From Escherichia phage EcS1, in the sequence record NC_055721.1: a DNA stretch of 64,000 nt; one strand, written 5' to 3'. The notes beneath the pieces were generated by a model, which was not told where the DNA came from, searched no databases, and worked only from the letters and a program-made list of their open reading frames with translations. Within the stretch, counting starts at the first letter, position 1. Every line of letters begins with the position of its first letter. This document shows, in pieces, positions 20,014 through 57,700 of this stretch. Made by a program: the position numbers and the translations under genes.

Positions 20014-20991
20014 TCATTTCAACATTGTTACTTCAGCGATTTCCATCCAGTTATCATGGTCAGTAGCTACGAAGTCTGCTACATAAAGAGCCGTACGGAG
20101 TGAGACGTTACGAAGACGATTAACGTTAGACTTCATCCATTGTAAAGCTTCGATTGTTTCACTGTTTGATAAGCCACGTTTCTGCAACATATCTGTGTTC
20201 ATGATTACATCTTCAACGCGAACCATGATTTCTTCGTTTGAATGAACACCAAGGTCCAAATAAACAGAACGTGAAACCAGAGCTGCAAGATGTGGAGCAA
20301 GTTTAGAACCACGTTCTAATTCTTTGTCAACATCAACGTTAGTGATGAACACAACAGTTCCAGCAAATTCGAATTCTTTATCGATGTCTTTGTCATCAAG
20401 ATAAGACGAAGCAGTGCTCCAACAAACTTTACGAGTCTCACCAGTGTCTAAAGCAGCTTTCAGAAGGTTCAGGATATCCATGTCAGAGAAGATATCAACA
20501 TCATCAATCAGAAGCACATTACCTTCTTCTTTATTGTTCCAGAGTTGTTCGTAGAGACCGATACCTGAAATTTTGCCATTAATGCTTTTGAAAACAATAT
20601 CACCTTTTGCATCAGCACGTTTTAGAGCTTTCTCAAGGCTGTATGTCTTACCAATACCTGCAGCACCAGAGATGATTAAAGAACGAATGTTACCATTTAT
20701 GATACCAGTTGTCATCATGTTCATTACGTTAAAGCGCTTAGTGATACGAGCTTTCATTTCTTCAACTGATTCAACTTCCAGTGGAGAAGTTTCAACACCT
20801 TCCATTTCGATATCAGTTTTGAACACCCATACACCACGTTCTTTGCCATCGATTTGAACGAATACTTTGCCATCTCCCAAGTGTGCTTCATGAGCTGGAA
20901 CCATGTCCGGGAACCAAGTACGAGAAGCAATGTATTTACCAGAGATTTCGTTACCGCGGTAAGTACCTTTATTGATTTGAACGTTGAACAT
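20014..20991 (-). CDS. P-loop ATPase (AAA-like) with N-terminal extra domain
   Basis: Walker A GAAGIGKT, Walker B LLIDDVD, sensor-like TVVFITN; start set to ATG at 20989-20991, downstream of repeated promoter-like element. Confidence 0.6.
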   Translation of the reverse strand: MFNVQINKGTYRGNEISGKYIASRTWFPDMVPAHEAHLGDGKVFVQIDGKERGVWVFKTDIEMEGVETSPLEVESVEEMKARITKRFNVMNMMTTGIINGNIRSLIISGAAGIGKTYSLEKALKRADAKGDIVFKSINGKISGIGLYEQLWNNKEEGNVLLIDDVDIFSDMDILNLLKAALDTGETRKVCWSTASSYLDDKDIDKEFEFAGTVVFITNVDVDKELERGSKLAPHLAALVSRSVYLDLGVHSNEEIMVRVEDVIMNTDMLQKRGLSNSETIEALQWMKSNVNRLRNVSLRTALYVADFVATDHDNWMEIAEVTMLK

Positions 20992-21018
20992 TTTATTTCT
21001 CCAAGTAAGTCTGTTTTG

Positions 21019-21060
21019 TTTCGATGTAGCTATAATAACATGTTTGAAGCAGATGTACAC
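21019..21060 (-). promoter_or_regulatory. early-type sigma70 promoter-like element (repeat copy 1)
   Basis: minus strand: GTGTAC - 17 nt - TGtTATTATAGCT then conserved leader CATCGAAACAA; shared with three other copies. Confidence 0.5.
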
Positions 21061-21062
21061 AC

Positions 21063-21503
21063 TTATTTGCAAAGATTCCACTGAATCAAAGTATATTTTT
21101 CGTTGTAACCAGCTTTTTCCATTTGAGCAGCAAATTCTTCAAAGTTTTTAGAAGATTCAAAGAAATTCACAGCCAATTTAGTAGGCTTAGCAACACGTTT
21201 TTCAGATTTAACTTCAACTGCTTTAACAACTTCAACCACTGGAGCTGATTCAATGATATCACATGAACCATCTGAATAACGAGCCCATACTTCGTTACCA
21301 ACTTTAAACATTGCTGCTTTACGACCGTTAGGCATTTCTACCATTTTACCTTTCAACTTAGTTACTTCAGTAATAACTTTGTCACCATACTCTTCAAAAC
21401 GATCTTTAGCCATTACGCCATCAGTAGAAGCAATCATTGGGAAGTTGAAATGGTAATAAGCAAAATTACGAATTGCATAATAAGTTTTCATTTTTAACTC
21501 CAT
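21063..21503 (-). CDS. hypothetical protein
   Basis: 146-aa ORF directly downstream of promoter copy 2. Confidence 0.5.
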   Translation of the reverse strand: MELKMKTYYAIRNFAYYHFNFPMIASTDGVMAKDRFEEYGDKVITEVTKLKGKMVEMPNGRKAAMFKVGNEVWARYSDGSCDIIESAPVVEVVKAVEVKSEKRVAKPTKLAVNFFESSKNFEEFAAQMEKAGYNEKYTLIQWNLCK

Positions 21504-21614: not shown

Positions 21615-21896
21615 TTAAGAGTGTTTATTAATCTGATTATGAGCTAGTTTTTTAGGTAAGAACCAAATAGCTTTAAACAAAGATACAATACCAATACAGA
21701 TAGCAATCCATAACCATAACGTCAAGAAGAACCAGAAATCAGTAGCTGTATCAACTACACCACGTTTAATCAGTTGACGAGTAATAATGTAGCCTACTAT
21801 AAAGTAGACAATAAGGATGAACCCAAATAATACCATAAGTGTTATACTCATATTTCGTCCCAATATAACTTGAACTCTATTTGATGACGAGCCCAT
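21615..21896 (-). CDS. membrane protein
   Basis: 93 aa with two to three hydrophobic helices. Confidence 0.4.
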   Translation of the reverse strand: MGSSSNRVQVILGRNMSITLMVLFGFILIVYFIVGYIITRQLIKRGVVDTATDFWFFLTLWLWIAICIGIVSLFKAIWFLPKKLAHNQINKHS

Positions 21897-22042
21897 CTTT
21901 TAAATTTACGAACTTGATTCTTAGTAGGTTTACAAGCAAACTTACTATTCACTCTGAAACCAGTTTCTCTGCAAACAGCTTCAAGATACCAACGTCTGCC
22001 TGTTCGAGGATGAGCTCTCCCGTAAGAGAGCCAGGTTTTCAT
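21848..22042 (-). CDS. hypothetical small basic protein
   Basis: ORF-track 21848..22093 trimmed to internal Met to remove overlap. Confidence 0.3.
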   Translation of the reverse strand: MKTWLSYGRAHPRTGRRWYLEAVCRETGFRVNSKFACKPTKNQVRKFKRWARHQIEFKLYWDEI

Positions 22043-22046
22043 TATA

Positions 22047-23060
22047 CTATCTGTTGTAATAAGCATCATGGTTTTCAAGATAAACCTCTTCAACGAATTT
22101 GTCCCAAAAGCTCATATCGACTTTAGAAGGCATACCGTTCTTGTGAGCCTGAACAGATAAACGCTCTACATCATCTACACAGATTTCTAACCATTCTTGA
22201 ACTTGTTTAAACGGAACAGTACCAGTTTTAACTTTAGTCAAGAATTCAGCATCTTTCAAAGGATATTTCAAGTCGCCAGTTGAATAGATTTCTTGAAGTT
22301 GAATACCACCACGTAATGCATGACTCAAAGCTTTCCAATCGATACCTTGGTTAGCTTCGGCCTTACGAGCACGTTCGCCATATTCGTCCCATAGTTTCAT
22401 GAGAGAATGTTTCATTTCTTTAATTGTGATAGTTGTCTGGAACTTACGGCCCAACACTTCATAGAAATGTTGTTGACCTGATTTATGGTCTGTAAACGTT
22501 GTCCATTCCAGGAATTCACCTAATGGAAGTTGAGAAGCAAAGTCAGACACACGCCAACGATCATTGATACCTTTCTGTTCTGGACGGTCAGAGTATTTCC
22601 ATTCAGGGATAGGTTCGATGACTTCGATTACTTTACGTAGGTCGGCCAGTCTTGAACCCTTTACACCATATTTCGCAGCTTGCTTACGGACATAACCAAG
22701 ATAGGCTTTCATGTCTGTCGTATAGAACTTGCTACGGTTGTCTTGGATAAACTTCCAGATATCAGGCAGGTCAGACTTAACTACAAGATTGCTAGGAGTA
22801 TGAAGCATGTCAAGAGCAACAGTTTCTCCTTCAGCAGCGAGTTTGAAGAAATACTTGAGAGAAAAGAGTTCATGGTCAACGTCATCTTTAGAGTTCTTAG
22901 AAGAACTGTTGTTAGTGTTCAAGTTAGTGTGATTCATTGCCTGGCACATCAAGATATCACGTGGATGTGGCACAAAGATTTCTTTATAGTCGACATCACT
23001 TTCTGGAGTAGATGTGCCATAAAGATGTGAGCCAAAATAACCTTTCATTACTGTTTTCAT
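22047..23060 (-). CDS. Pol-beta-superfamily nucleotidyltransferase (predicted)
   Basis: 337 aa; N-terminal GSHLYGTSTPESDVDY fits the GS-x(9-13)-DxD nucleotidyltransferase signature. Confidence 0.6.
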   Translation of the reverse strand: MKTVMKGYFGSHLYGTSTPESDVDYKEIFVPHPRDILMCQAMNHTNLNTNNSSSKNSKDDVDHELFSLKYFFKLAAEGETVALDMLHTPSNLVVKSDLPDIWKFIQDNRSKFYTTDMKAYLGYVRKQAAKYGVKGSRLADLRKVIEVIEPIPEWKYSDRPEQKGINDRWRVSDFASQLPLGEFLEWTTFTDHKSGQQHFYEVLGRKFQTTITIKEMKHSLMKLWDEYGERARKAEANQGIDWKALSHALRGGIQLQEIYSTGDLKYPLKDAEFLTKVKTGTVPFKQVQEWLEICVDDVERLSVQAHKNGMPSKVDMSFWDKFVEEVYLENHDAYYNR

Positions 23061-23500
23061 AAGTAGATATGTTCCCGTTTAGCGAATTTAACCAGCTCAT
23101 TAGCTTGTTTAATCTTGCCTTCAATTTCAGCTTTATCTGTACTTTTTTTAGAAGTTACTTGAATATTTCCAATTTGCTTATACGTATAGAAATATTCTAC
23201 TTCATGCTGGTGATACATTTCGCCGTCAGGATGTTGTTCACGATTCACTACAGAACGCATCTTAGTTTCAATAATAGGCCAAACCGCCCAATCAGATGGA
23301 GTCTTAATGATTGCAACAGAGATTTTATATTTCTCATACTTGTAGTCATTAATATAACCTAAAATACGTGCAGCAGGATCCATCATCGCAAAACGAATAT
23401 CAGCATGACTTGCACGAGGCATTTGATTCACGATGCTCATTGTGAGCTTCTTTTTAGTCGTTACGATTTCAATATCCACGGATGAATTCCCATTGACCAT
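23057..23500 (-). CDS. hypothetical protein
   Basis: 147-aa ORF, stop overlaps nucleotidyltransferase start. Confidence 0.45.
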   Translation of the reverse strand: MVNGNSSVDIEIVTTKKKLTMSIVNQMPRASHADIRFAMMDPAARILGYINDYKYEKYKISVAIIKTPSDWAVWPIIETKMRSVVNREQHPDGEMYHQHEVEYFYTYKQIGNIQVTSKKSTDKAEIEGKIKQANELVKFAKREHIYL

Positions 23501-25411: not shown

Positions 25412-25705
25412 TTACCTCAATTGTGAGTCTTTTGACCCACGGCGGTTGTAGTAGCTTTTAACCATGTTATCAGCCTTGCTTTGACATTCAACACAAAGTA
25501 GACAACCACGAACAGCCTGACGACGAGCCAAAGGAATAGGTTCATCACAATCCTCACAGAATTCATTACTTTCACGTTTTGAAGCAATTTCTAATTCAAG
25601 GCGAGCCCAAGAAACTGCATCATCGATAACGGCTTCACGAGTAGCAAAACCTTCATCACTTGGACCCCATCCGTTCATTATAAGTTCTCCTGATTGAGAG
25701 GACAT
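25412..25705 (-). CDS. DksA/TraR-type C4 zinc-finger protein
   Basis: 97 aa; CEDCDEPIP...RRQAVRGCLLCVECQ with CxxC-x17-CxxC spacing. Confidence 0.55.
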   Translation of the reverse strand: MSSQSGELIMNGWGPSDEGFATREAVIDDAVSWARLELEIASKRESNEFCEDCDEPIPLARRQAVRGCLLCVECQSKADNMVKSYYNRRGSKDSQLR

Positions 25706-25732: not shown

Positions 25733-26278
25733 CTAGTCTTCGTACCAAAAATCAGACCAATCGTTCATTTCTTGTTGCTCAAAATGGTCTTGAGCAGTTA
25801 TACGTTCAGCATAAGCAGCATCATCAGGGTCACTGAACTTGTCATCACGAAGTTCCTGAAGGAACATCATAGCATCTTCTTTAGAAGGCATGACTCGGTT
25901 CAAGTTATGAGCAGAACGATGTTGATGAGCACCATCAAATACACCACAATCAGCAATTGATGTTTCGGTTTCATAAGAACGTTCTTCACCATCTGACATA
26001 TAAACACAGATAATCTTAACAAACATAGCAGTATATGGTGTTGAACTATGAGTACCTAAAGCAACTGGATAAGGCTTACTCAAGATAATGTATTTGCTGA
26101 TTTCAGATTCATCAACTTTAGTGTTAGTACGATTAACTCCGTACACATGATACATGATACGACCTGGGTAGAACTCGGAAACAGATTTGATACGTTTCAT
26201 TTTAATTTCCTCAGTTTGTTTCAGTAGGTCTATAGTATCACGTCCCTCGAGGATGTAAACATCTAAACAAAAAGGCAC
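25733..26278 (-). CDS. hypothetical protein
   Basis: 181-aa ORF. Confidence 0.45.
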   Translation of the reverse strand: MPFCLDVYILEGRDTIDLLKQTEEIKMKRIKSVSEFYPGRIMYHVYGVNRTNTKVDESEISKYIILSKPYPVALGTHSSTPYTAMFVKIICVYMSDGEERSYETETSIADCGVFDGAHQHRSAHNLNRVMPSKEDAMMFLQELRDDKFSDPDDAAYAERITAQDHFEQQEMNDWSDFWYED

Positions 26279-26297
26279 TCCTCTTTTGAGAAGTGCC
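26269..26297 (-). terminator. rho-independent terminator-like hairpin
   Basis: minus strand GGCACT...AGTGCC stem followed by T5, just downstream of 26303..26683. Confidence 0.45.
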
Positions 26298-40119: not shown

Positions 40120-40195
40120 TGGTGCTGAATGCAGGAATCGAACCCGCGACCTTCTCATTACAAGTGAGCTGCTCTACCTACTGAGCTAATTCAGC
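40120..40195 (-). tRNA. tRNA-Thr (anticodon UGU)
   Basis: 76 nt; perfect 7-bp acceptor stem, canonical D and T arms (TTCGATT), anticodon loop CTTGTAA, encoded CCA. Confidence 0.8.
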
Positions 40196-40199
40196 AATT

Positions 40200-40284
40200 T
40201 GGTGCATCGAGAGGGATTCGAACCCTCAATCCTCGCGGCGTGGCATTTTAAGTGCCATGTGTATACCAGTTCCACCATCGATGC
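40200..40284 (-). tRNA. tRNA-Leu (anticodon UAA)
   Basis: 85 nt class-II tRNA; anticodon arm TGGCA-CTTAAAA-TGCCA, T loop TTCGAAT, CCA encoded. Confidence 0.8.
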
Positions 40285-40288
40285 GAAT

Positions 40289-40364
40289 TGGTCGAGACAG
40301 TAGGGATCGAACCTACGACCTAGGACTTAGAAGGTCCTTGCTCTTCCGTCTGAGCTATGCCCCG
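40289..40364 (-). tRNA. tRNA-Arg (anticodon UCU)
   Basis: 76 nt; anticodon arm AGGAC-CTTCTAA-GTCCT, T loop TTCGATC, CCA encoded. Confidence 0.75.
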
Positions 40365-40537
40365 TCTTTGTATAAACGTTCTAAGTAAACATGCTCCATC
40401 GGTTTAACGATTTCGCCTTGTTTCAATAATTGTGTTTGAATAGGATTCAAATTATAAAATTTGATCACATCTCTGAGATCTTGTTCGCTATAATTAAAAG
40501 TTCCTACTTCTACTCCGATTTGCATAAGTATCCTTTT

Positions 40538-40624
40538 TGGAGCTAGGAGTGAGATTCGAACTCACGAAAGCATAACGCTACTGGATTTGCAATCCAGCGC
40601 CTTTGACCACTCGGCAATCCTAGC
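40538..40624 (-). tRNA. class-II tRNA with anticodon GCA (Ser/Tyr-type architecture, Cys anticodon)
   Basis: 87 nt; perfect acceptor stem GCTAGGA/TCCTAGC, D arm GCC-GAGTGGTCAAA-GGC, anticodon arm CTGGA-TTGCAAA-TCCAG, long variable arm, T loop TTCGAAT, CCA. Confidence 0.65.
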
Positions 40625-40755
40625 AAATGTTCAGGTGGGAGTCGAACCCACACGATTGAAGCCTCTCATCGGGTTACCTCTTACTCAGCTGGGTGCTTAA
40701 ACCAGCGTTTCAAACAGAGTCCGCCAACATGTCTACCGATTCCATCACTGAACAA
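40625..40755 (-). ncRNA. tRNA-like structured RNA, about 130 nt (possible stable-RNA analogue)
   Basis: canonical T arm GTGGG-TTCGACT-CCCAC and 7-bp acceptor pairing, but the ends are about 130 nt apart and no standard anticodon arm was found. Confidence 0.3.
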
Positions 40756-40758
40756 TTT

Positions 40759-40983
40759 TTACATATCTACTTGACAAAACCAGTTCATTTCAAAATATTC
40801 ATCAAAATGTAATGCAGGTTCTACTTGACAATTTTCTTCTAATAAGACCAAATTTCTTCTAACAATAGGGTCTAATGACGTGATGGTCAAAGCACTATCA
40901 TGATAGTAAATCAGAACACGAAGCGAATCTGTATCAACTAAATACCGAACATTCATATCAGGATGTTTGTAGAGGTTAATCAT
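40759..40983 (-). CDS. hypothetical protein
   Basis: 74-aa ORF. Confidence 0.35.
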   Translation of the reverse strand: MINLYKHPDMNVRYLVDTDSLRVLIYYHDSALTITSLDPIVRRNLVLLEENCQVEPALHFDEYFEMNWFCQVDM

Positions 40984-40989
40984 AACATT

Positions 40990-41436
40990 TTATCCTTGAA
41001 GCATTTCACGAACACGATAAAGATTAGAACAGAATTCTTGTTCAGTTAGAACAGTTTCATTCTTTTTATTCTTACCCATGCTATGAGTTAATGTTGAGTT
41101 ACGCGTAGCTAGGAGTGCTCTCTTGAATCCTTCATTCAAAGCCAGAGAATCATATGCTCGCTGAATTAAAGACGTATAGGCTATACTTTGACGTAAAATA
41201 GGGACACCTTTCCAGTACAACGTTTGGGTGCGCCACCAGTTCTTTTTCTTACCTTTGAACTTAGCTTTCTTACCAACTAATGTACAGACATGCTCTTGCA
41301 TTTCTACTGAAGAAAACTTCAATGATTGCAAGAAACCTTCCATTGATGCACACTGTACTCCATCAATTTCGAAAGCATGAGGAGCAAAGTTACTTAATGC
41401 ACAACTTGGGTACATTGAACCTGAACCAATATCCAT
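40990..41436 (-). CDS. NADAR (YbiA-like) domain protein
   Basis: 148 aa; SNFAPHAFEIDG...SMEGFLQSLKF, KRALLATRN, NLYRVREML align with remembered YbiA/NADAR blocks. Confidence 0.7.
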   Translation of the reverse strand: MDIGSGSMYPSCALSNFAPHAFEIDGVQCASMEGFLQSLKFSSVEMQEHVCTLVGKKAKFKGKKKNWWRTQTLYWKGVPILRQSIAYTSLIQRAYDSLALNEGFKRALLATRNSTLTHSMGKNKKNETVLTEQEFCSNLYRVREMLQG

Positions 41437-41527
41437 TATCCATTATTCCTTTGATGATAATAACAGCGTTTACATCGATACCAACCGAAATAATCTTTGT
41501 AGATTATTCTATTGCAGTTGGGACATT

Positions 41528-41782
41528 TCATGCTGGTTCTACCTCAGTCATTGTTGTCCGTTTCAGAACCACACAACCTTCTATTTCAGGGTCTTTCTTA
41601 ACCAGAACTCGTCCAGTAGGCGAAATAAGGCCAGTAATATGATTCAGAGCTTTAGCAGCATCATTGAAGCCATCAGCTTGCATAATCGTTCCGAATGAGA
41701 ACCCTTGATAGTGATTACTAAACTCGTAATAAGCGTATTCTTCACGAATAGGGCAATAAATCACATAATCAACATTCAGCAT
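41528..41782 (-). CDS. hypothetical protein
   Basis: 84-aa ORF. Confidence 0.35.
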   Translation of the reverse strand: MLNVDYVIYCPIREEYAYYEFSNHYQGFSFGTIMQADGFNDAAKALNHITGLISPTGRVLVKKDPEIEGCVVLKRTTMTEVEPA

Positions 41783-42114
41783 AAGTCACCTACACATTGG
41801 AGAGCACGATGGTGTGACCATATTTCTAAAGTCTTTTCGTTGGCTTTATTAATTCGACGAAGGTCATTTAAATTACCTTTAACATATAACCCAAGTTCAC
41901 TTAACAAATGATCGATAGTGAAATAAGAAATATCTCGCAGTGGAGCATAACGGAACTTAATGAAGTGCCATTCATCAAACTCGTTTTTGGTAAACGCATA
42001 ATCAGCATGCATCATGAGTTCGCGAATCGTTTCACGCATCAAAAAGACATTACCGTGATAAGAATCATTTATAGCAACAATATGTGGACCTACACCTAGA
42101 TAGATACGAGACAT
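41776..42114 (-). CDS. hypothetical protein
   Basis: 112-aa ORF. Confidence 0.45.
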   Translation of the reverse strand: MSRIYLGVGPHIVAINDSYHGNVFLMRETIRELMMHADYAFTKNEFDEWHFIKFRYAPLRDISYFTIDHLLSELGLYVKGNLNDLRRINKANEKTLEIWSHHRALQCVGDLC

Positions 42115-42324
42115 AATATTTTCCTCAGTCAGTTTATTCTACATCATATTCAACTACAAGCACTTCTTCATAATCTTCAGGATTAAGAGTTTTAATGTAG
42201 TCTTCTGCTTTTTCTTTACTCGATAGAATCTTTAATGGCTTTGAATATTCATCATATCCATATTCACAGTTAAACTCTGACATAACAACTGCGTATACTA
42301 TCATAATATTTTCCTCATTTGAAT

Positions 42325-42401
42325 TGGTGGCCCTTGTCGGAGTCTAACCGACCTTACACCAGTTATGAGCTGGGCACTTTCACACGAAAGTATAAAGGGC
42401 C
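42325..42401 (-). tRNA. tRNA-like element with CAU anticodon (Met or Ile2), atypical T loop
   Basis: 77 nt; perfect acceptor GGCCCTT/AAGGGCC, anticodon loop CTCATAA, T arm GTCGG-TTAGACT-CCGAC, CCA encoded; 5' end overlaps a terminator hairpin. Confidence 0.5.
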
Positions 42402-42434
42402 ATTATTAAAATATTTTTACTTTAATAATGGCCC
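42397..42434 (-). terminator. rho-independent terminator (14-bp perfect inverted repeat)
   Basis: GGGCCATTATTAAA ... TTTAATAATGGCCC with 10-nt loop; on minus strand followed by TTTATAC; downstream of 42459..42743. Confidence 0.55.
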
Positions 42435-42458
42435 TCTCCGAAGAGAGGACAGAGGGTA

Positions 42459-42743
42459 TTACTTACACATGAACTTAGCAACTTCATCGAAGCTGTTCAA
42501 GATGTAATAAGACTTAGGCGCACTGTATTCAGTAGGTTTAATAGTAATACGTACACGACCATGCAAGTCTTCAACTAATCCAACAACAGCACTTGAACGA
42601 ACAACAGCACGAGCAGTTGTAGGAATCTGACCGGTAGTCAGAGCTTGAAGTTCGGTGTCAATAAGGATTACAATACGTTCAGACATTTTAATTTCCATTT
42701 GTTGTTTCGATGTAGTAATAATAACATGATTATTTTGAAGCAT
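42459..42743 (-). CDS. hypothetical protein
   Basis: 94-aa ORF downstream of promoter copy 4. Confidence 0.4.
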   Translation of the reverse strand: MLQNNHVIITTSKQQMEIKMSERIVILIDTELQALTTGQIPTTARAVVRSSAVVGLVEDLHGRVRITIKPTEYSAPKSYYILNSFDEVAKFMCK

Positions 42744-42750
42744 AACCGTT
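42703..42750 (-). promoter_or_regulatory. early-type promoter-like element (repeat copy 4)
   Basis: minus strand ATGCTTCA...TGtTATTATTACT...CATCGAAACAA. Confidence 0.45.
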
Positions 42751-42801
42751 CAGAGACTAAAAAGCCCAGTACAAGATTTCTCTTGCCCGGGCGTCATTAT
42801 T

Positions 42802-42876
42802 TGGAGCAGCATATCGGACTCGAACCGATGTCGACTGGGTGGAAGCCAGTAATATTAACCACTATACGAATGCTGC
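42802..42876 (-). tRNA. tRNA-Gly (anticodon UCC)
   Basis: 75 nt; anticodon arm ACTGG-CTTCCAC-CCAGT, T arm ATCGG-TTCGAGT-CCGAT, CCA. Confidence 0.75.
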
Positions 42877-42877
42877 A

Positions 42878-42951
42878 TGGCAGGCCCTGTAGGAATCGAA
42901 CCCACGTCGCTGAGGTTGGAGCTCAGAATGATACCACTATACCAAGGACCC
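42878..42951 (-). tRNA. tRNA-Trp (anticodon CCA)
   Basis: 74 nt; anticodon arm CTGAG-CTCCAAC-CTCAG, T loop TTCGATT; D stem weak. Confidence 0.6.
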
Positions 42952-43262
42952 GTTGATTGTACGGAACGCCTGGATTCGAACCAGGTTACAAAGCAGTTGA
43001 CGCTCCTTTGTATTTTGTAAGGCCATCATCTCGACCATATCCGAACGTTTCGTCAAAAACGCTACTCGGCTTATGGCAAAGACAAATCCTCGAACCGATA
43101 ATTGGTGGGAGCTGTTGGTAACGATCCAACCTCTCGAGCTCTTCAGGCAAGCGCTAATCCGTCTCAGCTAAACTCCCAGATCCACAAGAACTTTACAAGC
43201 ATTGCGCTTAACCTTTTCAGGAAGTTAGGGTACTATTTCTAGTCTGTGGTTATCCCTATTTT
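42952..43262 (-). ncRNA. structured non-coding region inside tRNA cluster (tRNA-like fragments)
   Basis: contains a canonical T arm CCTGG-TTCGAAT-CCAGG at about 42967-42985 and several hairpins but no complete cloverleaf was found by eye. Confidence 0.25.
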
Positions 43263-43338
43263 TGGTGGGAATAGCTGGATTTGAACCAGCGACCTATCGC
43301 TTATCGGGCGAGTGCTCTACCAACTGAGCTATATTCCC
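43263..43338 (-). tRNA. tRNA-Ile (anticodon GAU)
   Basis: 76 nt; GGGAATA acceptor, GCTCAGTTGGTAGAGC D arm, anticodon loop CCGATAA, T loop TTCAAAT, CCA. Confidence 0.8.
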
Positions 43339-43344
43339 ATAATT

Positions 43345-43421
43345 TGGTCTCCATATAAGGATTTGAACCTTAGACCTCCTGGCCCCAAACCAGGCGCTCT
43401 ACCAAACTGAGCTACACGGAG
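43345..43421 (-). tRNA. tRNA-Pro (anticodon UGG)
   Basis: 77 nt; anticodon arm CCTGG-TTTGGGG-CCAGG, T loop TTCAAAT, CCA. Confidence 0.75.
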
Positions 43422-43422
43422 A

Positions 43423-43668
43423 TTAATTTATATCAAATATGGTGCCATCTTTCCACATCATTGCGAAAAGAGGTGAAACTTTTGTTAAACGGTGTGCAAC
43501 TTTAACTTGACGGCTAAAACCTTCAATTTGAGCACCATAACCATTTATATCTAATACAAGACCAATATGAACTTTGCCAATATCAGACATACCATTTGAA
43601 GGTAATCCAATCATGACATAATCGTTAACTTCGATTTGTTTACCATATTTGTCAAATAATATCTTCAT
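43423..43668 (-). CDS. hypothetical protein embedded in tRNA cluster
   Basis: 81-aa ORF between tRNA-Pro and tRNA-Ser. Confidence 0.35.
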   Translation of the reverse strand: MKILFDKYGKQIEVNDYVMIGLPSNGMSDIGKVHIGLVLDINGYGAQIEGFSRQVKVAHRLTKVSPLFAMMWKDGTIFDIN

Positions 43669-43693
43669 AATTATTTATTCACCATATTTTAAT

Positions 43694-43787
43694 TGGAGGA
43701 AGCTGTGAGATTTGAACTCACGGAACCTGTCCCCAGGACCTCTAGTTTTCAAGACTAGTGCAATAAACCAGACTCTGCCAAGCTTCC
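43694..43787 (-). tRNA. tRNA-Ser (anticodon UGA)
   Basis: 94 nt class-II; anticodon arm CTAGT-CTTGAAA-ACTAG, long variable arm, T loop TTCAAAT, CCA. Confidence 0.75.
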
Positions 43788-43791
43788 GAAT

Positions 43792-43867
43792 TGGGGTGAC
43801 CTGTGGAATTCGAATCCACGACTACGAGAATCACAATCTCGAGTTCTACCAACTGAACTAAGGCCAC
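43792..43867 (-). tRNA. tRNA-His (anticodon GUG)
   Basis: 76 nt; anticodon arm CGAGA-TTGTGAT-TCTCG, T loop TTCGAAT, discriminator C, CCA. Confidence 0.7.
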
Positions 43868-43967
43868 ATCAATATTCACTCAGCCACTTCGTGCGGACCT
43901 GTCTCGATATTACGTGTAGTGGATTAGCTAGTTCACACCACTATATCGTCTAGAATGAATATTAATT

Positions 43968-44043
43968 TGGCTAGAGCGCTTGGATTCGAACCAAGGAATA
44001 CCAGAATCAAAATCTGGTGTCGTAACCGCTTGACTACGCTCTA
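43968..44043 (-). tRNA. tRNA-Gln (anticodon UUG)
   Basis: 76 nt; anticodon arm CCAGA-TTTTGAT-TCTGG, T loop TTCGAAT, CCA. Confidence 0.75.
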
Positions 44044-44045
44044 AT

Positions 44046-44121
44046 TGGAGGCGAGTGATGGAATCGAACCATCGCGTAAAGGGATATGAACCCTTTATTC
44101 TACCACTGAAGTTAACTCGCT
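44046..44121 (-). tRNA. tRNA-Met (anticodon CAU), initiator-like
   Basis: 76 nt; anticodon stem ends in three consecutive G-C pairs (AAGGG/CCCTT), loop TTCATAT, position 1-72 unpaired (A-C), CCA. Confidence 0.65.
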
Positions 44122-44248
44122 ATTGTCCGGGTTCTCGAAGTAAAAACAAGTAGCTTGATGTAGAACACATAAAGTGGGAACAACTCACTTCATCTCCTAG
44201 CATTATTGTATGGAGACTCAAACTCATCTTCAAGAACTGCTTCGTATT

Positions 44249-44325
44249 TGGCGGACGTGCTTGGACTCGAACCAAGGACCTATCGCTTAACAGGCGACCG
44301 CTCTAACCAACTGAGCTACACATCC
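44249..44325 (-). tRNA. tRNA-Asn (anticodon GUU)
   Basis: 77 nt; anticodon loop CTGTTAA, T loop TTCGAGT, CCA. Confidence 0.75.
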
Positions 44326-44329
44326 AAAA

Positions 44330-44461
44330 TTTACTTTCAGGGTTACTCGAAGCTCTCAAACCTTCCGGAAAGTCGAATAAGCATCTCATCCTCTCAGAAT
44401 CCCGTGCACAGGAAAAATCTTTATTAGGAGGAGACTAAATCAATATAACCCTGAAAGTAAA
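44330..44461. repeat. 16-bp perfect inverted repeat flanking a 100-nt spacer
   Basis: TTTACTTTCAGGGTTA at 44330-44345 and TAACCCTGAAAGTAAA at 44446-44461. Confidence 0.8.
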
Positions 44462-44475
44462 CTTACTTTCGAATT

Positions 44476-44552
44476 TGGTGGGACATCATGGACTCGAACC
44501 ATGGACACCCGGATTAAAAGTCCGGTGCTCTAACCAACTGAGCTAATATCCC
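44476..44552 (-). tRNA. tRNA-Lys (anticodon UUU)
   Basis: 77 nt; anticodon arm CCGGA-CTTTTAA-TCCGG, T loop TTCGAGT, CCA. Confidence 0.8.
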
Positions 44553-45015
44553 ATAGATATTTATCTATAAATCTCTTAGCTTGAGTATGACTTATATTTA
44601 AACTTTTACTAAACTTGGTTAATGCACCTCGTTTAGTAAAATCTATTAAATTATAAGCTTCAATTCTAGAAGCAATTTCTTCTTCAGACAAAACCAAAGC
44701 ATGGTTTTCTGAAATCTTTTTACGAGATTCTGTTGTATGTGACATACCAGTAAAACCAAGAGTAGGTTTTAGTCTACCATTAGCTTTAGCGTCTTGTGCA
44801 TTTTGTTTATTTGTCGCACAATAAATGTTTTCTAATGAATAAGGACCTATATCGCCTTTACGACACATGCAATAATCCAAACTTGCTTTACCACGTAAAT
44901 GATATTTACCTGTTGATTTCCACCAAGTAAACCACTCATCAAAAGTTAGATTAAATTCAATACCACGAGCTTTGGCATGAACTTTTTGCATACGGTACTT
45001 TTCATAATCTTCCAT
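44530..45015 (-). CDS. homing-endonuclease-like protein (NUMOD3-like motif, C-terminal DNA-binding region)
   Basis: start set to ATG at 45013-45015 (MEDYEKY...); GFTGMSHTTESRKKISENH resembles NUMOD3; 3' end reads through the 5' part of tRNA-Lys. Confidence 0.4.
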   Translation of the reverse strand: MEDYEKYRMQKVHAKARGIEFNLTFDEWFTWWKSTGKYHLRGKASLDYCMCRKGDIGPYSLENIYCATNKQNAQDAKANGRLKPTLGFTGMSHTTESRKKISENHALVLSEEEIASRIEAYNLIDFTKRGALTKFSKSLNISHTQAKRFIDKYLWDISSVG

Positions 45016-45030
45016 ACAACTCTCACAAAT

Positions 45031-45106
45031 TGGCAGTGCCGACGGGATTCGAACCCGCATGGTCTCCCGTGACAGGGGAGTATATTACCAAGTCTACCAC
45101 GGCACT
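45031..45106 (-). tRNA. tRNA-Asp (anticodon GUC)
   Basis: 76 nt; anticodon arm CTCCC-CTGTCAC-GGGAG, T loop TTCGAAT, CCA. Confidence 0.75.
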
Positions 45107-45112
45107 ATTGTT

Positions 45113-45187
45113 TGGTACTCTGTAGGAGAATTGAACTCCTCTTCCCAGGTTGAAAACCTGGTGTCCTAACCGATAGACGAACAGAGC
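45113..45187 (-). tRNA. tRNA-Glu (anticodon UUC)
   Basis: 75 nt; D arm TCGTCTATCGGTTAGGACACC, anticodon arm CCAGG-TTTTCAA-CCTGG, CCA. Confidence 0.75.
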
Positions 45188-45195
45188 TAAGAATT

Positions 45196-45284
45196 TGGTG
45201 CACCGAGAAGGACTCGAACCTACGAAGCTCATTACAAGCAGGAGATTTACAGTCTCCACCCTTTGCCACTCGGGTCATCGATGC
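45196..45284 (-). tRNA. tRNA-Tyr (anticodon GUA)
   Basis: about 89 nt class-II; anticodon arm GGAGA-CTGTAAA-TCTCC, long variable arm, T loop TTCGAGT, CCA. Confidence 0.7.
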
Positions 45285-54700: not shown

Positions 54701-57700
54701 CTGTAAAAGCACCTATCGTTACCAGTTTACGAATTGATAAACTGTCTGCGAACCAGGTTCACATTCGTTGGGATGACGTTGGTGCTAATTTCTACTATTT
54801 TGTAGAACTTACTAATACACGAGATGGTCTTGGGGTCGTAATTGACCCCTCTCGTTATCAGTGGAGAGCACTAGGTTATACCGCGGACAATGACTGGTTT
54901 GAAGAAGCATACATCTATCCACTCTCATATTATAAAATGCGCGTAGGCGTAGCTGCTGCAGGCTTCGAACAATCTGAATGGGTTACAACTGAAGAATTCC
55001 AAACATTTGAGACAAATGCGTATACATTTGAGACTATGCGTGAATTAACTTTAGTTAATAAGTTTATTCAAGAAAAATTTACAAAAAACAATCAAGATTA
55101 TATTAATTTCAACAGAGATTCTATTGAAGCTTCTTTAATGAATGAGAGCTTCCAATTTAGTCCTTCTTTTGACGACTTATCTTCAGTTAAAAACTTTATT
55201 TTAAATGAAGATCAATATCATGAGGTCCAAGGTCCAATAGTCCATGTTTGTAATCCGGACACAGACCGAGTAATGTTAGCTGAGATGGATGATGTTCTTT
55301 ATTTGTTTGAGCGCTTCCAACCTATGGTTAAAGTGTCAAATGATAAAGGACAGAACTGGCAATATATCCAATTGTTTAATGACCGTGTAGGCAATCCTGT
55401 TTCACGTATTTGTCATTATCAATCTAAATCGACTACGTATGTTCTTGGATATGACCGTATATTTTATGGACGTCGTTCTAATGATATCAGATGGTCAGCT
55501 GATGATGTTAAATTCAGTTCACAAGATATAACCTTCGCTAAAATCGGTGACCAATTAAAACTTGGATTTGATGTTGAAATCTTTGGGACTTATTCTAGAC
55601 TCCCAGGTGAAGTCTCTCGTATCGCAGAGGCAATCGTATGTAATGATGACTATGTCTATGTGGTTGCTCGTGATAAAGTCCGCTATGCTAAGCTGAAGAA
55701 TGCTCCTATAGATGTTGACCCAGCTTCTCCTACCTTTGGTGAGAAATTATTTGAAACTGAAGTTTTGAATATCACAGGCAATCCTAAAGCTGTATGCTTT
55801 AAAATGGATTCAATTGGCGGTCGTATATTTGCTTTAATCACAGGTGAAGTTAAAGTAGAAAAACAAGACCCAACGAATCCTGAAAATGTCATTGATTCAG
55901 CATCTAAAGGCGTTTATGTTCTTGAAGGTTCTACATGGCGCAGAGTATTCGGTAACACTGATGAAGAACGACGTCGGATTGAGCATCAATATACTTCAAT
56001 GTCTACTGATGGTATCGAATTATTCTTTAGCTCAAGTAACTTCAAATATCTTGAAACTGTTAAAGACACTGCACTGCTTCTTGAATACCCAGAATTATCA
56101 GATGCAATAAAATACGTCCCAGTCGAAGAGTTCTTGCATGATAAGCATTATCATATGATGAGCTTCCGTTCAGGCGAAGATTCTAATTGGGAAACATTTA
56201 AACCAGGACGTATGAAGTATTATGCTGAGCCATTCTTTGCTTGGATGAAACGTTCTGGGAATCGCAATTGGATTACAACTGATGACCACTGTATGGTTGT
56301 TTATGCAGACCGTTTGTATACAACTGTAATTGATGAATATGGTTCAGGTTCTCCAGACCGTATTATGCATGAAACTTGGAACAAAGGTGAATGTATTGTC
56401 AATTCGCCTAACATTGAGTTCAGAGGTTTTAAAAAATATGCCGGTGGTGTTTTGATTCATAAAAACACCGGTGAGCTTATTGGATATTTTGAATTTGACT
56501 ATCGAGTTCGTGATGAAGCTCGTATCATTTGGAAACCAAAAGAAGTAATGCTTAAAGCATATCTTCAGAACCAGGTTCGTGAAGTTCCTTGGACTCCAGA
56601 AGTAAACGATGCAGAACGTGATCCTGATTTACGACCACTAATTAATAAAATGATGCCTGACACTTACTTACTTCAAGATACTAATTTTGAAAAGTTTAGT
56701 GAATACTATTTGCAATATATTTCAGATGGATATGGCACTCATTATAATAAATTGTTGAATCTTATCAAAGAGAAATATCCTAGAGAAGAACATGCTTGGG
56801 AATACCTTTGGTCTGAAGTGTATAAACGCAATATCTATTTGGATAAAGAAAAACGTGATACAGTAACTCGATTCTTTGAGGCTCGTAAAGCTGACTTCTT
56901 TAAAACAAAAGGTATTGAAGAATCATATAAGTTCTTATTCAAAGTTCTTTATAATGAAGATGTTGAAATTGATATTGAATCTAAGAACACAACTGAATAT
57001 GGTGTTATTGTCGAATCTGATAATATCAGTGAAGATTTAGCAGGAAGAACAGTTTATACGCCAACAGGTCGTTGTAATGTGACTTATATCGAACGAGTTT
57101 ATTCTGAAGGTAAGCTGCAATGGCGATTAACTATTCATAACCTTTTAGGACGTTTCTTAGTTGGTCAAACTATTAAATCTGAAAAGACTAATTTCACTGG
57201 GACTATTGTTCAAGGTGTAAGAGGTAAAGAACTTCTTTCTAACAATATCGATTATATTAATCGTAATCGTTCTTATTACGTTATGAAGATTAAGTCTAAC
57301 CTGCCTACATCACGTTATCGTAATGACGTGTTAAGATTCGTTCATCCAGTTGGCTTTGGCTTTATTGGTATAACTCTTTTAACCATGTTCATTAACGTTG
57401 GTCTTACATTAAAGCATTCGGAAACAATCATCAATATGCTCAAAACATATCGTTGGGATGCTGGTTTACCTAATGTCTGGCCTGATAGAATTGCCGTCCT
57501 TGATTCAAATGGTAATATTGAATTTGACTCAGTTACAGGTGAAGCTAAATATGATAACCACCCTAATTCAGGACAACCGTTCCCATTGCCTACAGATTAT
57601 AATTCTGAAAATGACGATAGTATATTTGGTGGACAAACTCCGGATGAACGCCGTAAAGAATTAAGTCCAACTATGGACCAATCTGCAGTGACGTTCTCTA

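Follow-up and report, generated by a model that had tools for sequence, protein, structure and literature searches.

The nrdC.11-like gene of Escherichia phage EcS1 encodes an RlaP-family nucleotidyltransferase with a predicted role in RNA end repair

Introduction

On what substrate does the nucleotidyltransferase act that Escherichia phage EcS1 encodes upstream of its nrdC.10 gene? The gene in question, an nrdC.11-like open reading frame (ORF) at 22047..23060 on the minus strand, lies in a 64,000-nucleotide stretch of the EcS1 genome (NC_055721.1), the whole of which is here termed the window. An earlier note, made from the sequence letters and a list of ORFs, had described the product as a Pol-beta-type nucleotidyltransferase of unknown substrate, for which tRNA 3′-end repair or modification and interference with host nucleotide signalling were both considered plausible. 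Pnkp and Rnl1 of phage T4 are the textbook case of a virus mending tRNA that its host has cleaved, and nucleases that excise a nucleotide, such as RloC, were thought to defeat this repair. The present analysis favours, with a probability of roughly 0.65, the reading that the protein is an active, metal-dependent and template-independent RNA 3′-terminal nucleotidyltransferase that restores damaged tRNA ends, either within Pnkp/Rnl1 repair or ahead of CCA addition. If NrdC.11 does refill gaps, T4-like phages would own a three-enzyme pathway to heal, refill and seal broken RNA, and a gene carried by about 1500 genomes and still called ‘of unknown function’ would gain a function.

Family assignment and orthology to T4 NrdC.11

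The ORF begins with ATG and comprises 337 codons and a stop. Its product is 100% identical to the protein deposited for EcS1 as ‘nucleotidyltransferase’, and from this the phage is known to be T4-like. T4 NrdC.11 (NP_049709.1; T4 coordinates 55435..56445) has 67% identity to the EcS1 protein over 335 amino acids with no gaps, and nrdC.11 is found directly upstream of nrdC.10 in EcS1, T4 and Serratia phage X20. The EcS1 gene is an ortholog of T4 nrdC.11, with a product of equal length and the same place upstream of nrdC.10 in the leftward gene string that runs from nrdC to rI. It differs in that three additional small ORFs separate nrdC.11 from nrdC.10 in EcS1, and in that its upstream neighbour is not that of T4, in which the homing-endonuclease gene mobD adjoins nrdC.11 (PMC2988022).

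A Pfam scan gave RlaP (PF10127, ‘RNA repair pathway DNA polymerase beta family’) as the sole match, with 43.6 bits against a gathering threshold of 23 (E 3.7e-11) for residues 8-135, and no thioredoxin domain was found in the protein. The same annotation is carried, precomputed, by all close homologs. In a scan of PHROGs the protein fell into phrog_388 (‘nucleotidyltransferase’, E 1.6e-128), to which T4 NrdC.11 also belongs, and a scan of NCBIfam gave one sub-threshold, irrelevant match. The ORF itself, the Pfam and phrog_388 matches and the identity to T4 NrdC.11 together define the coding sequence as that of an RlaP-family nucleotidyltransferase. Orthologs of nrdC.11 were classed as COG3541 nucleotidyltransferases as early as 2006 (PMC1524935), and a preprint of December 2025 counts T4 NrdC.11 among the RlaPs, in cluster 5 of its sequence similarity network and with the label ‘of unknown function’ (PMC12776372). 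The description of the product as a nucleotidyltransferase of unknown substrate is therefore superseded by orthology to a gene of this RNA-repair family. Many GenBank and UniRef records call NrdC.11 orthologs ‘thioredoxin’, a label that looks carried over from the gene name nrdC, and one record has ‘HNH homing endonuclease’.

RlaP was predicted by Aravind's group to replace nucleotides lost at broken RNA ends before ligation, an example being the wobble base excised by RloC (PMC7824862). Two canonical members from Pseudomonas, PfRlaP and PaRlaP, add one or two nucleoside monophosphates (NMPs) to an RNA 3′-OH with a preference for Mn2+, favour the 5′ half of anticodon-cleaved tRNA and refuse DNA and proteins; with a tRNA one nucleotide short, treatment with RlaP before ligation partly restores aminoacylation (PMC12776372).

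Catalytic residues and conservation

The catalytic motif G10-S11-x10-D22-x-D24 spans residues 10-24 (GSHLYGTSTPESDVD; 22989..23033, minus strand) within the N-terminal Pol-beta nucleotidyltransferase core (about residues 1-112; 22725..23060, minus strand). It consists of G-S, ten residues and D-x-D, and both the ORF and the GS...DxD signature that the earlier note had picked out are thereby borne out. Conservation was assessed in two alignments, one with 51 homologs from T4-like and marine phages (24-80% identity) and one with 147 representative homologs (29-54% identity); the following counts are taken from the latter. G10, D22 and D24 are present in 147/147 sequences and S11 in 144/147, and G10, S21, D22, D24, Y131, H247, R250 and P267 are invariant. 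The earlier note had named poor conservation of the motif aspartates as one ground for refutation, and both proved to be conserved without exception.

A third catalytic carboxylate is probably supplied by the acidic strand D60-V-D62-H-E64, which would provide a metal-binding residue. This strand corresponds to residues 61-67 in the AlphaFold2 model described below, and the region through D84 (22809..22883, minus strand) was delimited from the translation, the conservation and that model. Position 62 is acidic in every homolog (138 D, 9 E), while D60 is D in 139 and D84 is D in 142 of the 147. The Pol-beta catalytic signature of G-S, DxD and putative third carboxylate is thus kept family-wide, as expected of an RlaP member.

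Beyond the core, model secondary structure and conservation mark out a long helix of residues 118-148, with Y123, Q127, K130, Y131, K134 and R137, which together with a beta-rich insert at about residues 150-210 occupies 22431..22709 (minus strand), followed by a C-terminal helical domain of residues 213-334 (22059..22424, minus strand). The latter contains the basic motif D241-W-K-A-L-S-H247-A-L-R250 (22311..22340, minus strand), seen in the translation and retained among homologs. Invariant or near-invariant residues in the C-terminal half are Y131, K134, R137, R230, D241-W-K243-x-x-S-H247-x-x-R250, P267 and K278, and about 95% or more of the 147 homologs keep D60, D84, R230, K243 and K278. 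Judged by sequence, the conserved basic residues and the D-W-K-x-x-S-H-x-x-R motif would suit binding of a triphosphate or of RNA. The region of some 280 amino acids previously taken to be free of recognisable motifs accordingly holds D60-V-D62-H-E64, D84 and these conserved C-terminal residues including the D241...R250 motif.

Predicted structure and structural matches

The AlphaFold2 model of the protein (predicted local distance difference test score, pLDDT, 88.8; predicted template modelling score 0.72) has an N-terminal alpha/beta nucleotidyltransferase core, the helix 118-148, the beta-rich insert and a C-terminal domain of five helices that resembles HEPN-like bundles. Its top matches among solved structures are all nucleotidyltransferases, namely HalB (score 9.4), 3c18 (8.2), kanamycin nucleotidyltransferase (6.7), DrrA (6.5) and GlnE (6.4). 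With this confident model and these matches the predicted Pol-beta fold is corroborated, and so, together with the above-threshold PF10127 score and the invariant aspartates, is membership of the Pol-beta superfamily. The model also aligns over about 340 columns with other phage nucleotidyltransferases (template modelling scores 0.46-0.55), including that of PaBG, which is matched by canonical RlaP as well. Searches of PDB sequences with the protein, with a profile of NrdC.11-like proteins and with a profile of canonical RlaP found no relatives, the PfRlaP crystal structure included. Because G10, D22 and D24 are invariant, residue 62 is always acidic and the fold matches are nucleotidyltransferases, the protein is predicted to be an active enzyme.

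The presence of DrrA and GlnE among these matches brings up the transfer of nucleotides to a protein or small molecule, that is, AMPylation as performed by DrrA, GlnE and MNT antitoxins or a reaction like that of the aminoglycoside and lincosamide nucleotidyltransferases, with a host or phage factor as target. This is improbable, as the likeness is a generic one of a nucleotidyltransferase plus a helical domain at 10-14% identity and RlaP is the sole Pfam match. Furthermore, the genes next to homologs encode RNA ligases, kinases and CCA-adding enzyme rather than toxin-antitoxin or resistance functions, and canonical RlaP left E. coli proteins unlabelled (PMC12776372).

The match to HalB bears on a different proposal, synthesis of an oligonucleotide or nucleotide signal in the manner of HalB or the CD-NTases, whereby the phage might, for example, hold a Hailong-type channel shut with decoy oligo(dA) or interfere with host signalling in another way. 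HalB of the Hailong system (PDB 9dbh, 9dbj) synthesises poly-dA from a tyrosine primer and has the HalA channel as its partner. It has 217 residues compared to the 337 of the EcS1 protein, and the two show 13% identity and no profile-level sequence relation. Y14 of the EcS1 protein is W in canonical RlaP and hence an unlikely priming residue. No cGAS/DncV-type or other CD-NTase fold occurred among the structure matches, neither the protein nor either of the flanking ORFs had a match in PADLOC, and the contexts of homologs are those of RNA repair, not of defence or signalling. Pfam, PHROG and PADLOC searches of the neighbouring ORFs identified no defence family, with no HalA-specific model being used and the 2023 PADLOC possibly predating Hailong. 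The cyclic-nucleotide or host-signalling role suggested in the earlier note thus found no backing in PADLOC or in the fold matches, and signal synthesis of any kind is scarcely credible for this protein.

Relationship to canonical RlaP

NrdC.11-like proteins share several features with the canonical RlaPs of the Pseudomonas rtcB-rlaP-rtcA operons (PfRlaP, PaRlaP). These are a PF10127 score above threshold, an extended motif (NrdC.11-type hGSxxYG...SDxDxK/RxIY/F compared to canonical ESGSRxWG...DSDFDVRFIY), apparently a similar layout of N-terminal nucleotidyltransferase and C-terminal helical domain (from comparison of the EcS1 model with the published description) and, for homologs of NrdC.11, an association with RNA ligases and end-healing enzymes. 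They differ in being about 70 amino acids longer, with the beta-rich insert at about 150-210, and in that the canonical type co-occurs with them in bacteria as adjacent genes or fusions. When the 51-sequence NrdC.11-like alignment was compared to nine canonical RlaPs with hhalign, 39 columns around the motif were aligned (probability 51%, E 1.5e-4). The catalytic motif was the only stretch to align in this profile-profile comparison, and full-length homology extending to the C-terminal helical domain was not detected. Because the alignment is limited to 39 columns, the NrdC.11-like proteins are placed, on their sequences, as a divergent sister subfamily inside PF10127 which would partner with canonical RlaP instead of replacing it. 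The two types are paralogous partners, not orthologs.

A scan of bacterial genomes provided 49 NrdC.11-like loci. In 16 of these the NrdC.11-like part forms the N-terminal half, and a full-length canonical RlaP the C-terminal half, of a protein of 620-860 amino acids, and in at least three further loci a separate canonical RlaP gene directly follows the NrdC.11-like gene. Three of these canonical modules, one in a fusion and two encoded as adjacent genes, were scanned with Pfam and scored 232-287 bits over PF10127 positions 1-249. Fusions occur in Desulfovibrio, Synergistaceae, Adiutrix and Desulfobulbus, and an adjacent, overlapping gene pair in Alphaproteobacteria; the loci with fused or adjacent genes are L029-L050 (e.g. 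L032:7929-9803 and L040:4502-6376), L013, L017 and L027. Such arrangements suggest an RNA-repair module with two nucleotidyltransferases.

Distribution in phages

A tblastn search found the nrdC.11-like protein in 1518 phage records, of which 1443 are near full length. Most are Straboviridae of Escherichia, Klebsiella, Shigella, Aeromonas, Acinetobacter and Vibrio, and in T4-type genomes the gene is named nrdC.11. An exhaustive search of representative sequences gave 3176 clusters (50% identity) at E<=1e-3, with 828 at E<=1e-30 and full length. When records with NrdC.11, Rnl1 and Pnkp are counted by host genus the numbers are nearly equal (607/635/634 for Escherichia, 286/287/286 for Klebsiella and 83/83/83 for Shigella), which is consistent with a shared pathway. 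In T4, the segment from nrdC.11 to mobD.3 is lost in viable genome-reduced mutants (PMC9825161), a dispensability that fits an accessory role in counter-defence.

Canonical RlaP was identified in 80 phage records, all of jumbo phages and none T4-like, with no overlap with the 1518 mostly T4-like NrdC.11 records. With the canonical type absent from T4-like phages, NrdC.11 is therefore their sole RlaP-type enzyme. Together with the bacterial loci this permits a tentative reading, possible but not to be leaned upon, of the NrdC.11 type as a functionally distinct second RNA-repair nucleotidyltransferase with a substrate or nucleotide specificity of its own, which would complete the T4-like Pnkp-Rnl1 pathway as its missing third enzyme. 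Bacteria would keep it beside or fused to canonical RlaP and T4-like phages would have it alone, where it could, for example, put back the wobble nucleotide after its excision by RloC, or nucleotides of the acceptor end before CCA addition. Were this so, the phage would be able to beat nucleotide-removing nucleases that ligation alone cannot counter.

Gene context of homologs

The partner genes beside NrdC.11-like homologs were verified with Pfam. In a group of uncultivated phages (L127-L135), an HD phosphoesterase/P-loop kinase gene is followed by one for an Rnl1-type ligase and then by the NrdC.11-like gene, the genes being adjacent or overlapping, and in two other loci (L117, L122) Rnl1 lies within 8 kb of the NrdC.11-like gene. 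Two IMG/VR contigs (L128:6841-9506 and L129:4524-7141) present such compact RNA-repair cassettes, with an Rnl1-type ligase and the NrdC.11-like nucleotidyltransferase last; their kinase is of the P-loop polynucleotide type and is fused to an HD phosphoesterase, unlike the HAD-type Pnkp of T4.

Another frequent neighbour is the class II CCA-adding enzyme (PF01743 PolyA_pol plus HD domain), itself a template-independent nucleotidyltransferase of the Pol-beta superfamily acting on tRNA 3′ ends. Its gene directly precedes the NrdC.11-like one in four phages of marine origin (R16F, 1.084.O, Barba19A and a 142-kb contig), while in phages resembling Aeromonas phage 65 the CCA-adding enzyme lies about 5 kb, and Pnkp about 9 kb, from the NrdC.11-like gene. 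Two Campylobacterota loci have the order CCA-adding enzyme, NrdC.11-like gene and RtcB, and in Synergistaceae the CCA-adding enzyme gene precedes that of the fusion of NrdC.11-like protein and canonical RlaP. The nrdC.11-like protein differs from this enzyme in having no Pfam (PF01743) or fold match to it, and, since the two are encoded as separate neighbouring genes, they are not redundant. A gene of the Gad2 family (PF26128), anti-Gabija-like, is present at L008:116-1594, about 4.4 kb upstream of the CCA-adding enzyme/NrdC.11-like pair in the uncultivated 142-kb marine phage, and suggests that this pair lies in a counter-defence region.

Dereplication of the homologs at 70% identity leaves 51 NrdC.11-like clusters, and 22 of these have one or more partners from among Rnl1 with HD-kinase, CCA-adding enzyme, RtcB and canonical RlaP. 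That such genes are fused or directly adjacent in several unrelated lineages goes far beyond what chance would give. The contexts of KVP40-like phages and Emmerichvirinae showed no RNA-repair neighbours and are uninformative. As regards the role in tRNA or RNA end repair put forward in the earlier note, the gene context of distant homologs supports it; its count of about 18 tRNAs is slightly too high, as ARAGORN gives 17 tRNA genes, all of them at 40120-45284 of the window.

The pairing with the CCA-adding enzyme could also mean that the same chemistry is applied at another site, so that what is rebuilt is the tRNA acceptor 3′ end (for example the discriminator base or stem nucleotides lost to 3′-end toxins) for the CCA-adding enzyme, not gaps in the anticodon loop ahead of Rnl1. 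That enzyme is the commonest separate neighbour of NrdC.11-like genes, being adjacent in eight loci (seven clusters at 70% identity) and at <=6 kb in three more, across marine phages, Campylobacterota and Synergistaceae. However, other homologs adjoin Rnl1 and HD-kinase or RtcB, which seal internal breaks, canonical RlaP favours the 5′ half of tRNA cut in the anticodon loop (PMC12776372), and the 64-kb window is without a CCA-adding enzyme. Restriction to the acceptor end is accordingly rather unlikely, and the two sites can both apply.

Proposed function

The preferred reading, repair of tRNA ends by addition of nucleotides at the RNA 3′ terminus, takes as its basis the family, the catalytic-residue conservation, the fold, the orthology to T4 NrdC.11 and the contexts of homologs. 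For the substrate, the metal, the trigger and the length of the addition it borrows from the biochemistry of canonical RlaP and argues from guilt by association. D22, D24 and one acidic side chain from the D60/D62/E64 strand would coordinate a pair of metal ions, probably Mn2+, and these would activate the 3′-OH of an RNA, most likely a tRNA fragment, that has been broken or trimmed. The enzyme would then move one or a few NMPs from nucleoside triphosphates onto the RNA 3′ end. In the pathway envisaged, Pnkp would heal the ends, NrdC.11 would refill the nucleotides removed by RloC-type host anticodon nucleases or by 3′-end-trimming toxins, and Rnl1 would seal the break, while with a damaged acceptor end a CCA-adding enzyme would finish the repair instead.

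Several points weigh against this proposal. The PF10127 match covers the N-terminal half of the model only (positions 25-143 of 249), and the biochemistry on which the proposal draws comes entirely from canonical RlaPs, which appear to share about 39 profile columns with the NrdC.11-like subfamily. The occurrence of both types together in bacteria, even as fusions, argues that their activities are not identical. The 64-kb EcS1 window contains no Rnl1 or other ligase, Pnkp, RtcB, CCA-adding enzyme or canonical RlaP, T-even-type phages generally have no RNA-repair gene within 10 kb of nrdC.11, and in T4 pseT and rnlA lie about 80 kb from it. In addition, the co-distribution of NrdC.11, Rnl1 and Pnkp in T4-like phages may derive from shared ancestry alone.

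The gene family is already published, the RlaP repair idea and the membership of T4 NrdC.11 both being prior. Added here are the distinct NrdC.11-like subfamily, the phage Rnl1/HD-kinase cassettes, the pairing with CCA-adding enzyme and the bacterial fusion to canonical RlaP. Judged against literature other than the original 2016 description of RlaP, the apparent residual novelty lies in the distinct subfamily and its pairing with canonical RlaP.

Neighbouring ORFs in the EcS1 window

The ATG of the nrdC.11-like gene shares the sequence ATGA with the stop codon of the upstream ORF (23057..23500; phrog_7981), and the next ORF downstream starts 4 nucleotides past its stop, so the gene is part of a tightly packed leftward string. 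This downstream ORF (21848..22042, minus strand) encodes, from an ATG, a small basic protein of 64 amino acids with matches to DUF7279 (52.9 bits) and phrog_8921. The earlier note had proposed to look for co-occurrence of these two ORFs with nrdC.11 in related phages. ORF 23057..23500 was found in 5/13 loci at >=75% NrdC.11 identity and in 2/25 at 65-75%, and ORF 21848..22042 in 7/13 and 7/25 respectively, with neither found below 65%, their absence from distant phages being a soft negative as single-sequence phmmer is less sensitive at low identity. Both were consequently rejected as partners, being confined to close relatives and lineage-specific.

The nrdC.10 ortholog (20014..21081, minus strand; phrog_1250) encodes an AAA/STAND-like P-loop ATPase, for which all Pfam matches are sub-threshold. 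It is found no more than 1.5 kb from nrdC.11, and on its strand, in 13/13 loci at >=75% identity and in 16/25 at 65-75%. As an obligatory partner this ATPase was rejected, the linkage holding within Tevenvirinae and being lost in more distant homologs. Also downstream of nrdC.11 is an ORF (21615..21896, minus strand) for a protein of 93 amino acids that appears hydrophobic by eye (phrog_6166, unknown function), present in 13/13 of the closest relatives and patchy beyond.

Further upstream, an ORF at 25412..25705 (minus strand) encodes 97 amino acids with a CxxC...CxxC pattern (CEDCDEPIP...CLLCVECQ) and matches, by position only, the gene for a ‘DksA-like zinc-finger protein’ in Serratia phage X20. 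A promoter scan of 19.5-27.5 kb gave 19 promoter-like sites compared to 26 in the shuffled expectation, and no transcription unit could be defined from it. A scan of the same region for terminators found a strong intrinsic-terminator-like hairpin at 26274..26297 (minus strand), GGCACTTCTC-AAAA-GAGGAGTGCC followed by TTTTTG; no other convincing terminator was seen there upstream of the nrdC.11 gene string.

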